DNA of 64,000 nucleotides from Phyllosticta citribraziliensis. Lineage: Eukaryota. The position numbers and the translations under genes were made by a program. A model generated the notes under the pieces. The model was not told where the DNA came from. It made no database searches and saw only the letters and a list, made by a program, of their open reading frames with translations. Of the stretch, positions 9,717 through 13,671 are shown piece after piece. Location of the stretch: contig NW_027117351.1 in the NCBI RefSeq assembly GCF_038025025.1, positions 310,001-374,000 of the forward strand. The letters are read 5' to 3'. How positions within the stretch are numbered: position 1 is the first letter of the stretch; every line of letters starts with the position of its first letter.

Positions 9717-10930
9717 ATGCTCTATTTACCATGGAGCAAGAAGCATGCATACAGTCCCCTCATCCCCGTAGACGAACCTACTACTCGCTACGCAGTGCGC
9801 ACGTTTAGACGCCGCTCCCTGATTCGACTTGTGCGCATACCGATGGCTATTGTGCTATTGCTATCGATCTTGTAAGTCTGCTGCAAAACAGGCCTACTTC
9901 TTCTTGAACGTGTCCTGACGCGATTAAGCAGCCTATTGTTCCTCTTTCCGCAAGAAGGCCACGGGAAAAAGAAGCAGTGGCTGGACACTGTGGGCAACTG
10001 GAGAAGCCCTGTATATGGAGTCGAGCCCATACCGTGCCATTCTCATAGTGAGTCTAAAAAAGCAAGCCGCCCTGAGGCATCCAAGACTCACCTAATCCAG
10101 ATGACTACTTGCGTTCACCTCCTCTATTTGCTGCTCTAGGCACAGGGTGTGTCAGCGTCGAGACAGACATTTATTTCGATGGACAAGAGCTTTACGTTTC
10201 ACATTACGAAGAAGATCGCACGCAGAACGCAACTCTATCCAAATTGTACATTGAGCCGCTCACGGAAATCCTGAAGGCTGCGAATTCTGGTGGAGGCGAT
10301 GGCGCCAATAGACCACAAGCAGGCGTGTTTGGCGCAGCTCCATCGCAATCTCTCGTCTTGGTCATTGACTTCAAGACTTCCGCGAGCGAGGCATGGCCAC
10401 ATGTCAACGAGGCTCTGGAACCGCTCCGCCAACGTGGATGGCTTGAGCACTGGAACGGCACAAATCGTGTTCCCGGCCCCGTGACAGTCGTCGGCTCAGG
10501 CGGCGTGTCTTACAAGTTGGTCACTGCCAACAATACATACCGAGACATCTTTCTCGACGCTCCGTTGGATTCTCTCAAAGACAAGTCCGACTTGAAGAAG
10601 AAGTCAATGTTCAAGTACAATCCTTCCAACTCGCACTACGCGTCGGCGAAGCTGGACAAAGCGACGGGGATTGATATCACATGGATCGGCTTCAGAAACA
10701 AGGCTGGCATCAGAAAATTGAGGACACAAATCCATGAGGCCACGGACAGGGGTCTATTGCCACGGTATTGGGGCACTCCAGGCAGACCGCGCCTGTTCCG
10801 GAAAACTCTTTGGCAGGTGCTAATTCGGGAGGGTGTTGGGGTGCTGAACGTGGATGATTTGGCAGCTGTGAGAGAGCTGCGCTGGACGCTTCCTTGGAAA
10901 GAGCCGGCTGCTGTAACTTCGCAGCAGTGA
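9717..10930 (+). CDS. AIM6: Aim6-family PLC-like phosphodiesterase-fold protein
   Basis: Two introns (about 9872-9930 and 10048-10100) give an N-terminal hydrophobic anchor, then PIPCHSHNDY...GCVSVETDI...LYIEPL...LVLVIDFKT...RYWGTP...LNVDDL. Confidence 0.85.
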
Positions 10931-11332
10931 TAGGCAAAATGGAAATTCGAAGTGTTGCTGAATTGCCTTACTAGTCCAGGGGCTGGTTGTTTTGTGCATG
11001 TGACGATGGTCTGGGTCATGGCTGGTCTTGAAATGTGGCGTCATGGCAGATCTCATGACGGTCAACGTGACTTTTTGAGGGCGTGGGCAGATGACGCTGT
11101 GACTGAGACGCGAAAACCAAAGGTTGGTGAAGTCTTCTGGTTCGGAAAGTGGCGGGGGGCATGCAGCGGTTTGTCTTTGGACTGTGCGCCAAGCCAATCG
11201 CTCTCCCGGTCCCCGACTCCCGCCGCTCCATAACCAACACGACCTCTTGAACCTTACACCACACACCTTTCGACGAACAACACCCACCCACCGTCTCTTC
11301 ACGCCACTCGCCTCTCACATCTCCAACTCGCC

Positions 11333-12390
11333 ATGTCCGCGTACGCCAGCCCTGCGCCGTCGGATTCGAACAATGAGCCCAAGAAGATCACCTTTAGGTT
11401 CTGCGAGGACTGGTAAGCTCACCTGCGCGTCCACATCTTGGAACAATCACTGACAAGCCCAGCTCCAACCTGCTGTACCCGCGCGAGAACAAAGAGAACA
11501 ACACGCTCCAGTTCGCCTGCCGAACCTGCTCCTATGAGACCGAGGCTCAGTCGTCGTGCATCTACCGCAACGAGCTGAGCAACACAGCCGCCGAGACGGC
11601 GGGCGTGACGAGTGACTTGGGCCAGGATCCGACGGTTAGTAACACCTATGCTGGCAGCGCGATGCACCCCAACATCATGTCCACCACCAACACAAGCCCC
11701 AACCACCACCACCCCATGGACGACGACGACGAAGACATGGACCTGGATTCGCTGGCCGACGTGCCCTCGTTTTGCACCATGTGCGGGCAGGAGATATTCT
11801 GCGGCATGTGCGGCCAGGAGACCAAGGACGCGGGCCTGTTTATCGAGGCCGACGACGAGGAACCCGGCGTCCTCCACGCCAGCCGCCCGCCGCGCGAAGT
11901 CCACATGCCCGACGCTCTCATGGCAGACCACCGCTACTTCGACCTTGACGAGGATTACGACGTAGACGACGACGACGACTTCGATGCGACAGAGCCGCCC
12001 TACCATTCCCAGCAACACCCTCACCCCCAATGATCGTCCGCGCCCTCCATCACCATCCAGATTTCTTGCCTACTTGTACTTGTATACTTTGCTTTACAAA
12101 TCACCACCTGCACTACCACATGCAACAGTCGTTAGTCGCGCCGAGCTTCTCGTCGAGCTTTGCCCGCTAACTTCTTGCTCGTTGTACATAGCTGCCTAGG
12201 ACGAACCGCCCCTGTCCCAAGTGCGGCGAGACCGAGGCGGTGTTCTTCCAATCGCAGCAGCGAACCGCCGAGACTGGCATGGTACGTCTTCTCCCCGCGT
12301 CAGCAATGCCTTGCAGGACTGACTCGCGCGTGCCTTTAGAAACTCTACTACGTTTGCGTTAGCCCGAGCTGTGGCTACGTCTGGCAATAG
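11333..12390 (+). CDS. RPB9: RNA polymerase II subunit Rpb9 (canonical isoform)
   Basis: Exons 11333-11412, 11463-11634, 12192-12281, 12340-12390 give FRFCEDCSNLLYPRE...FACRTC...[27 protein letters not shown]...MKLYYVC..PSCG, i.e. both zinc ribbons. Confidence 0.97.
11635..12033 (+). CDS. RPB9: Putative alternative Rpb9 C-terminal coding region inside intron 2
   Basis: The frame of exon 2 continues 132 codons through the GTTAGT donor, with coding-like codon usage, acidic tracts and a CTMC-GQEIF-CGMC motif. TGTA elements follow the stop. Confidence 0.6.
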   Translation, partial: VSNTYAGSAMHPNIMSTTNTSPNHHHPMDDDDEDMDLDSLADVPSFCTMCGQEIFCGMCGQETKDAGLFIEADDEEPGVLHASRPPREVHMPDALMADHRYFDLDEDYDVDDDDDFDATEPPYHSQQHPHPQ

Positions 12391-12772: not shown

Positions 12773-13671
12773 TTATACGTGGGCCGGCGCCATGGAGAGA
12801 ATCTTGGACCACTGCGTTTTCCTGAGCTCGGCGCCCACGACACCTGTACGCAAGACAATGTCAGCCCTGACACCAAAGACTCCCATACATCCTTCTCGTC
12901 CAATGTCGTCCGCCGTCGTCCCGCCCCCGTCGCAGCTGAATGGGGAACCGACTCACCGTTCAAACGCGTGCCAATGGGCTCGCCATTCTTGTTGATGAGG
13001 ACGCAAGCGTTGTCGTCGAAGCGGACGACGCTGCCGTCGGGGCGCTGCAGCTTCTTGGCCGTGCGCACGACGACGGCGTGCCGTATGTCGCCGCGGCGCA
13101 CCTTGTTTGCGGCGCTCACGGCGACGCTGCCGCCGCCGGACTCGGGCCCGAAGCTGCGCTGCTTTTGCACGACGACGATGATGCGTTCTCCTGTGGGTGG
13201 GTAGCGGCTGTTAGCGTGGTTGTGTGGTGGATGTGCGTGGTGAAGCGCGGAGGCGCGCGTTTGGAGTGCGCTGTTGCGCCGCGTTGGGGGTGCGTTGGGA
13301 TGGGTGATTGCTCTTTGACGCGCTCGTCTGAGTGCTTGTTCGGAGGTCGTGCGGCGTCTAGATGCGGCGGCGCGCTGTTGGGACTTGGTATAAAGTGCCG
13401 CATACGAGCGGTGGTGCATGACAGGACAGGGCAGGGCAGGCGGAGGAGCAAAAGAAGTCGTCTCGTACCGATTTTGGCGGGCCGCTCGGCGCGCATGACC
13501 TTGATGCACTCGACAATGGCGGCGCCCGAGTTGTCGATGCAATTGATCAGCGACTGTGGTGAAGCGTCAGCTTGGAGGCTTCGTCGTGGGGGTGCCGTGT
13601 TCGCCGCATCGGTGGACGTCGAGTTTGACTGCGGCGGCGGTTGGGCTTGGGCGTACCTTGAGCTGAATCAT
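12773..13671 (-). CDS. MRPL38: Mitochondrial ribosomal protein uL14m
   Basis: Four exons give [16 protein letters not shown]...[13 protein letters not shown]...[15 protein letters not shown]...[10 protein letters not shown]...[23 protein letters not shown]. Confidence 0.95.

Follow-up and report, generated by a model that had tools for sequence, protein, structure and literature searches.

Intron 2 retention in RPB9 of Phyllosticta and other Dothideomycetes probably specifies a second Rpb9 protein with an acidic four-cysteine tail

We analyzed a stretch of 64,000 nucleotides (nt) of the fungus Phyllosticta citribraziliensis (NCBI RefSeq assembly GCF_038025025.1, contig NW_027117351.1, positions 310,001–374,000 of the forward strand; hereafter the window, whose first letter is position 1). 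Our subject is RPB9, a four-exon gene on the plus strand (11333–12390) that encodes a subunit of RNA polymerase II (Pol II). We consider it likely that RPB9, in Phyllosticta and in Dothideomycetes generally, is one gene for two proteins, the choice between them being set by the splicing of intron 2. Sequence comparisons indicate that these fungi probably produce a further Rpb9 in which the N-terminal zinc ribbon (Zn1) and the linker behind it are retained and an unrelated tail takes the place of the C-terminal zinc ribbon (Zn2). Core Pol II subunits are usually taken as single, invariant proteins; the second form of Rpb9 bears strong signs of selection at the protein level, and it is conserved across a fungal class with many crop pathogens.

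RPB9 gene structure and the open frame in intron 2

The coding part of exon 1 (11333–11412, ATG at 11333) is joined to exon 2 (11463–11634) over the 50-nt intron 1 (11413–11462, GTAAGC..AG), and this joint (11412 to 11463) was found in the RNA contigs of all four public runs described below. The RPB9 contigs start at ~11245–11247, a position that is a contig end and no mapped transcription start. Exon 2 supplies the remaining part of Zn1 and the linker, finishes with the residues ..GQDPT, and matches PF02150 above the gathering score (E = 1e-7), as expected of an RPB9-type N-terminal zinc ribbon. Next comes intron 2 (11635–12191), which at 557 nt is about 10 times as long as introns 1 and 3; it opens with the off-consensus donor GTTAGT (11635–11640) directly after DPT and closes with the acceptor TACATAG. 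Exon 3 (12192–12281) codes for the first half of the TFIIS-type ribbon Zn2 (PF01096, E = 3e-9), and its joint to exon 2 (11634 to 12192) was recovered from runs X1, X3, and X5. The 58-nt intron 3 (12282–12339, GTACGT..AG) is skipped, like intron 1, in the RNA contigs of all four runs. Exon 4 (12340–12390) holds the end of Zn2 (KLYYVCVSPSCGYVWQ) and the stop codon TAG (12388–12390), with an ending that is the same as in the Aplosporella model P0012.

Fully spliced, the gene yields a canonical Rpb9 of 130 amino acids (aa), with the PF01096 ribbon completed by exon 4. The message that retains intron 2 yields a product of 216 aa that ends before exon 3 and has no PF01096 ribbon. In this product the donor itself codes for Val-Ser, and the frame of exon 2 runs on through an alternative C-terminal coding segment (11635–12033) of 132 codons followed by TGA (12031–12033), read only when intron 2 is retained. 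The joined exon 1, exon 2, and tail (protein P0003) are 100% identical to a 216-aa NCBI model from P. citribraziliensis. When compared with solved protein chains, the canonical relative P0012 matched Rpb9 (E = 3e-38), Rpc10 (E = 1e-8), and Rpa12 (E = 9e-4), and the isoform P0003 matched Rpb9 only (13 of 13 matches, best E = 1e-24), aligning with residues 3–70 of the yeast protein.

The tail contains a conserved core (11764–11865) of the form P-x-F-C-T-M-C-G-Q-E-I-F-C-x-x-C-G...G-x-x-x-E-x-D-D, with the first bases of its four Cys codons at 11773, 11782, 11800, and 11809. Behind the stop lies the noncoding rest of intron 2 (12034–12191), with two TGTA elements (12075 and 12081), a branch point CTAAC (12167–12171), and the end of the acceptor at 12191. 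A sequence-only reading of this DNA had described the long intron with its weak donor after DPT, the 132-codon read-through, the CTMC-GQEIF-CGMC motif with a duplicated 27-nt unit, a coding-like composition, and the tandem TGTA behind the stop, and all of these features are present.

The GC content of the tail at codon positions 1, 2, and 3 is 0.667, 0.371, and 0.826, respectively. GC at position 3 in exon 2 is 0.877, and the GC content of the remainder of the intron is 0.50; the tail frame thus shows coding periodicity like that of the adjoining exon. As a chance event in a single species, an open frame of this length is mildly unusual and not very rare (346 of 20,000 mononucleotide shuffles of the intron were open for at least 132 codons). 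Its conservation among relatives, judged from the comparisons below, is far beyond chance. The two 27-nt units (11770–11796 and 11797–11823) share 21 of 27 nt and seven of nine residues. Across 120 related tails the same nine-residue repeat has a median of only four of nine identical positions, and given this figure an internal duplication as the source of the two knuckles is suggestive at most.

Spliced and retained messages in RNA

RNA evidence came from Logan contigs of four public runs: X1 and X2 (organism A), X3 (organism B), and X5 (a plant-metagenome RNA-seq library). Unitig depth is a single figure per unitig and serves as a rough guide, and contigs show neither RNA ends, strand, nor true levels. 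Introns 1 and 3 are skipped with GT..AG boundaries in all four runs, and the depth bins fit an absence of intron cover; in X1, X3, and X5 no contig covers the upstream spacer before ~11245. These two observations indicate that the runs represent RNA and not DNA.

A single unitig (11605–12220) holds the whole of intron 2 between both flanking exons in X1 (depth 326.6), X3 (807.5), and X5 (12.3). The spliced joint has depths of 461, 1832, and 41.2 in the same runs, so that intron 2 reaches between one third and three quarters of the joint's depth. In X2 the retained intron is held in three pieces at a depth of ~2900, compared with 18,867 for exon 2, and the spliced form is seen only as a loose end matching the end of exon 2. 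Both mRNA forms, spliced and intron-2-retained, exist. The earlier claim of retention was thus borne out, with the retained form in all four runs and the spliced joint in three, plus the loose end in X2. By unitig depth the retained form makes up roughly 15%–40%, a rough estimate that is far above the values for introns 1 and 3 of the same gene.

The RNA contigs also carry variation within the tail. Organism B has insertions of 9 and 6 nt inside the open frame and two 1-nt deletions (12036 and 12054) just past the stop. Among eight listed substitutions between the window's tail and related organisms, seven fall at codon position 3 and six are synonymous. Alternative donors inside the tail, from which splicing to exon 3 could occur, were considered and set aside, with none among the three joints listed and no conserved Val codon.

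Conservation of the tail among proteins

A search with the tail alone returned seven proteins among 21 candidates, including two further Phyllosticta species, Lasiodiplodia, and Macrophomina. With phmmer over 1.84 billion representatives, 15 clusters matched the tail; in 14 of them the Rpb9 N-ribbon runs to ..DPT and is followed by a variable spacer and then by this Cys core, and the remaining one (P0015) is an unrelated repeat protein. A profile built from 18 tails (A1) then found 178 proteins among 1501 candidates. The protein counts that follow rest on the best 120 of these 178 matches, and the tail searches covered proteins of up to 237 aa.

The pattern C-x2-C-x5-C-x2-C was present in 118 of the 120 matches listed, plus two more proteins from the phmmer set, and the four Cys, one Gly, and one Glu do not vary over 120 aligned tails. 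Organism names are given for 24 of the matches listed; 23 of these are fungi, and all 23 are Dothideomycetes (taxonomy was looked up for 21 of the 23 named fungal species, the other two being Phyllosticta). They span Botryosphaeriales, Phaeotrichales, Eremomycetales, Venturiales, Mytilinidiales, Pleosporales, Aulographales, Mycosphaerellales, and Microthyriales, together with Coniosporium, of uncertain order. The organism names on record among the matches listed suggest a restriction to Dothideomycetes. The same 23 named species bear out the earlier suggestion that automated annotations of other filamentous fungi contain models with similar tails. The 24th named entry, P0032, is a 93-aa protein with a fungal tail core that is filed under a bacterial metagenome-assembled genome (Terriglobus roseus) on a 2998-nt contig, which is probably fungal and wrongly binned.

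No protein among the 120 (up to 237 aa) has the Zn2 motif in addition to the tail, and no stand-alone tail gene was seen among proteins of up to 237 aa. One ESM Atlas row pointed to a 217-aa cluster with both ribbons, a combination that none of the 120 tail proteins matches.

When the N-ribbon was used as the query, seven of the 10 closest models had the tail form and three were spliced at intron 2, so that automated RPB9 models disagree because of the two splice forms. Only one of the three spliced models (Aplosporella) has the correct last exon. The other two, P0010 (Phyllosticta citricarpa) and P0011 (Diplodia seriata), read through intron 3 into unrelated terminal residues, and public annotation of RPB9 is for this reason wrong beyond intron 2 in these models.

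Selection on the tail in related loci

We scanned metagenome DNA for the back-translated core, an approach that is independent of gene callers, and obtained 33 loci (31 when those identical across the junction are counted once). In all 33 loci a single open frame runs from exon 2 through DPT into the tail, and every tail frame that is complete on its own contig terminates at a stop inside the intron. Tails in these loci range from 52 to 132 codons and introns from 198 to 557 nt, with the window included at the upper end. Intron 2 length is 0, 1, or 2 modulo 3 among the loci; read-through into exon 3 is therefore not a conserved option.

Exon 3 follows behind an AG and a CTRAY branch point (−17 to −30) in 24 of the 33 loci. 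Of the nine loci in which exon 3 is not so placed, eight are on contigs that end at most 351 nt past the donor, and the ninth is L009. In L009, at ~330–430 nt past the donor, exon 3 is divergent, shorter, and without FFQ.QQR; the tail is intact and the last exon looks normal. Either Zn2 may be in decay in this one lineage, or the contig may contain an error.

The ratio of nonsynonymous to synonymous substitution rates (dN/dS) was estimated for eight closely related loci (L010, L015, L017, L018, L020, L027, L030, and L031; 28 pairs). Tail dN/dS was 0.075–0.31 at synonymous distances (dS) of 0.05–0.72, and 0–0.05 in the adjoining exon 2. By part, dN/dS was 0.031 in the 33-codon core, 0.19 in the spacer, and 0.35 at the end. 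For a single pair (L010/L020), the contrast between nonsynonymous and synonymous changes over the whole tail is highly significant (Fisher P = 4e-12). Gap lengths carry the same reading frame: 36 of 36 pairwise gap runs inside the open frame of the tail are multiples of three, compared with 11 of 56 between the stop and the acceptor. These comparisons show that the tail is conserved coding sequence under purifying selection as a protein. They bear out the prediction of a conserved frame and CxxC-x5-CxxC motif with dN/dS below 1 in relatives (all 33 loci in frame, dN/dS 0.031–0.35 by part).

Synonymous divergence (pS) across the eight loci is unusually low in the last ~25 tail codons (0.10, compared with core and spacer values of 0.32 and 0.50, respectively), which hints at an extra RNA constraint at the tail end, such as one on splicing.

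A persistently weak intron 2 donor

The donor that follows DPT was tabulated for the 33 loci and the window: GTTAGT (10), GTGGGT (10), GTCAGT (five), GTTGGT (four), GCAAGT (four), and GTTTGT (one). A consensus-type donor (GT[AG]AG or GTA[CT]G) is used by intron 2 in none of these 34, compared with 22 of 25 for intron 3 in the same loci. GTAAGT would code for Val-Ser equally well and is used in 0 of 34. These two counts suggest selection for a weak donor. Together with the tail in frame, its stop, the branch point, and exon 3, this weak donor makes up one conserved architecture.

Loci L002–L005, which represent one lineage, have the donor GCAAGT and hence a GC-AG intron, and their tails start with Ala-Ser rather than with Val-Gly or Val-Ser. 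Proteins P0013, P0029, P0030, P0033, P0036, and P0043 share this DPTAS start.

Predicted structure and relatives of the tail

AlphaFold2 models built with 102 and 120 aligned sequences gave predicted local distance difference test scores of 82–95 for the N-ribbon (residues 21–60), 74–88 for the Cys core, and ~50 everywhere else. The tail is thus predicted to be a small four-Cys knuckle inside a disordered chain, and the four Cys a putative zinc site. Net acidity is found past the knuckle in all 120 tails and in 94 of 112 spacers. The sequence-only reading had proposed that the C-ribbon is exchanged for an acidic zinc-knuckle tail through retention coupled to intronic polyadenylation; the exchange is supported, with a four-Cys acidic tail in place of Zn2 and with Zn1 and the linker kept, and the polyadenylation part is not.

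No Pfam family matched the tail above threshold (sub-threshold zinc-ribbon matches had E = 0.095–0.12), and the tail profile had 0 matches at E ≤ 10 among PDB sequences. Fold searches returned a best Foldseek E of 2.0 and, with a wide VIA-align search, nothing at Z ≥ 2. ESM Atlas gave only Ascomycota Rpb9 clusters, at scores of 0.77–0.83, which serve as leads only. By these searches the tail of the second product appears to belong to no described family.

An assignment of the tail to the TFIIS-type ribbons and its origin from a duplicated exon 3 were both considered and rejected. A TFIIS-type ribbon would be expected to match PF01096, which the tail does not, and its spacing of five residues between knuckles holds in 120 of 120 tails. 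For the duplication, an hhalign comparison of the tail profile with canonical Rpb9 gave a probability of 11% over 12 columns and hence no support, a value that bears on the ribbon assignment as well.

Two probable Rpb9 proteins from one gene

The following scheme would account for the observations. Splicing at the weak donor past ..DPT would produce the 130-aa Rpb9 with Zn1, linker, and TFIIS-type Zn2. Retention of intron 2 would produce the 216-aa protein, in which Zn1 and the whole linker are kept and are followed by a variable acidic spacer, a knuckle CxxCGxEIxCxxCG with G..LE.xD behind it, and an acidic disordered end. The retained message would use the normal 3′ end, with no intronic poly(A) site required, and would be translated into the tail protein. 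This isoform may occupy the Rpb9 site on Pol II via Zn1 and the linker, since it keeps the equivalents of yeast residues 3–70. The outcome would be a pool of Pol II without Zn2 functions and with a new acidic module near the jaw.

In yeast, Zn2 of Rpb9 has roles in TFIIS-linked cleavage and fidelity. The available text of one yeast study reports that residues 1–52 (Zn1 and linker) are enough for ATG1 activation and autophagy and that Zn2 (C75/78/103/106) is dispensable for both (PMC9638876). The tail form would then be a natural separation-of-function allele, in which Zn1 and the linker are kept and Zn2 is swapped, and the long-debated division of labor between the two ribbons of Rpb9 would become testable in a natural setting.

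Several points weigh against this interpretation. The 28 dN/dS pairs share one tree and are non-independent; the confidence of the predicted Cys knuckle is only moderate; and the 15%–40% share of the retained form is a rough depth figure from single unitig values and no true measurement. Pol II binding by the isoform is extrapolated from yeast truncations. The Pfam, PDB, Foldseek, and VIA-align searches gave no sequence or fold relative that hints at a function for the tail. Finally, the stop of the retained mRNA lies ~250 nt upstream of the spliced intron 3 junction, and a stop upstream of a spliced junction could mark an mRNA for nonsense-mediated decay in filamentous fungi.

That possible exposure to decay keeps alive a regulatory reading, in which retention at a weak donor yields a decay-prone mRNA that tunes Rpb9 dosage and the tail itself has no function. 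The weak donor in 34 of 34 loci and the premature stop upstream of a spliced junction are consistent with it, and a feedback loop is conceivable: the available text of one report describes RPB9 expression level as setting Pol II fidelity and polymerase errors as causing intron retention (10.1101/026799). Regulation does not need an open frame, however, and an early stop would do equally well at lower cost; yet the frame is kept in all 33 loci, the core evolves at a dN/dS of 0.031 with four invariant Cys over 120 tails, and all 36 indels keep the frame. We regard a purely regulatory role as very unlikely, although regulation and a functional tail can coexist and do not exclude each other. Another reading grants that the protein is made but places it off Pol II, where it might act as a decoy that captures Rpb9 partners or might serve an unrelated purpose dependent on zinc or acid. 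The predicted disorder of most of the tail and its lack of known relatives would fit, but in all 33 loci the tail is fused in frame to Zn1 and linker in their entirety. Solved structures show Rpb9 held on Pol II by these very parts, which in yeast are also enough for several functions, and the protein search described above, up to 237 aa, gave no sign of a tail encoded by itself; a function away from Pol II strikes us as improbable. It is barely conceivable that the tail is an artifact, in which gene callers took up a frame left open by chance in a GC-rich intron and the intron reads came from genomic DNA or nascent pre-mRNA. Chance frames of this length do occur in shuffled introns (the 346 of 20,000 above), and many database models come from automatic callers. 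The metagenome scan, however, did not depend on gene calling, dN/dS and indel phase carry strong signatures of selection, and in X1, X3, and X5 introns 1 and 3 and the upstream spacer are uncovered at the same time as intron 2 reaches a third to three quarters of joint depth.

The same alternative protein could also come from retained transcripts that are polyadenylated within the intron near 12100, as the sequence-only reading had proposed; such transcripts would carry no exons 3 and 4 and would escape decay. The TGTA pair at 12075 and 12081 fits this idea, as does the 158-nt segment behind the stop, the longest among all loci, and budding yeasts offer precedents: in the text available to us, PMC7491326 describes a retained FES1 intron in which sense codons and a stop are accompanied by a poly(A) site, and calls retention in L. 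starkeyi MDH likely coupled to intronic polyadenylation. But in X1, X3, and X5 the unitigs with the retained intron pass without interruption from exon 2 across ~12100 into exon 3, neither AATAAA nor ATTAAA occurs past the stop, and no A-rich loose end near 12100 is found among the ends listed, in contigs that by their nature cannot show RNA ends. Moreover, 24 related loci have only 24–124 nt from stop to acceptor, mostly taken up by branch point and acceptor, so that such a site cannot be general. The proposal is unsupported, and we think it unlikely that the protein arises mainly in this way; a minor or Phyllosticta-specific site is possible.

Retention with the normal 3′ end and a translated tail is the reading we prefer, and it invites a more speculative extension that we hold to be rather unlikely as it stands. 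Dothideomycetes might possess two kinds of Pol II, the second with an acidic zinc-knuckle tail at the jaw, by the downstream-DNA cleft and the TFIIS entry funnel. There the tail could act as a built-in gate, nucleic-acid mimic, or TFIIS competitor that alters fidelity, pausing, or start-site choice, with the ratio of the two kinds set via Pol II feedback on the RPB9 intron 2 donor.

Comparison with known systems

Canonical Rpb9/POLR2I (yeast 1i3q chain I, human, and bovine) corresponds to the same gene, with Zn1 and the linker identical up to DPT, and differs from the isoform in that the latter's unrelated 132-aa tail replaces the PF01096 ribbon Zn2. The tail shares some features with TFIIS-type ribbons (TFIIS, Rpb9, Rpa12, and Rpc10/C11), which likewise have a four-Cys site with CxxCG knuckles directly past the same linker. 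In relatives with short spacers the first tail Cys lies 6–10 residues past DPT, near the position of the canonical ribbon. The spacing of the tail is nevertheless C-x2-C-x5-C-x2-C, whereas TFIIS-type ribbons have ~24 residues between knuckles.

Variant C-termini of a core Pol II subunit are known from the human RPB11 (POLR2J) family, where they stem from gene duplicates and exon choice in primates. The RPB9 isoform differs from this case in its origin by intron retention, its class-wide conservation in fungi, and the measured purifying selection.

The mechanism itself is of a known kind, conserved protein-diversifying intron retention, as in FES1 and PTC7 of Saccharomycotina. As described in the available text of PMC7491326, retention in FES1 gives another C-terminus behind a shared N-terminal body, with the stop inside the intron as in RPB9, and the event has been conserved over hundreds of millions of years. 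The retained FES1 intron contributes four codons and a poly(A) site (PMC7491326), unlike that of RPB9, which codes for 52–132 codons with a selected and probably folded core and for which an intronic poly(A) site is unsupported. PTC7, with a retained intron that is translated and a frame conserved between species, resembles RPB9, where translation is probable; the PTC7 intron is, in the same source, divisible by three in length, contains no stop, and inserts a segment within the protein (PMC7491326). The RPB9 intron, by contrast, has any length modulo 3 and always ends the protein. RPB9 has 0 occurrences in the available text of PMC7491326, and no description of the isoform was found in the literature searched on Rpb9, including the available text of PMC13300194, PMC13451438, and PMC9638876, with subscription journals outside this scope. 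For filamentous fungi, the two-form RPB9 would be a rare and deep addition to the known cases of intron retention that diversifies the proteome.

Neighboring sequence

Downstream from RPB9, a minus-strand neighbor from ~12840 codes for a Ribosomal_L14 domain (PF00238, E = 1e-21). RNA contigs with RPB9 exons 3 and 4 extend to 12844 and resume near 12958, and the ~113 nt skipped are probably an intron of this convergent gene; the transcripts of RPB9 and its neighbor seem to overlap at their tails. Upstream, a 284-codon open frame (10076–10930, plus strand) had no Pfam match at E ≤ 0.001, and in run X2 a 2532-nt contig covers 10900–11302.

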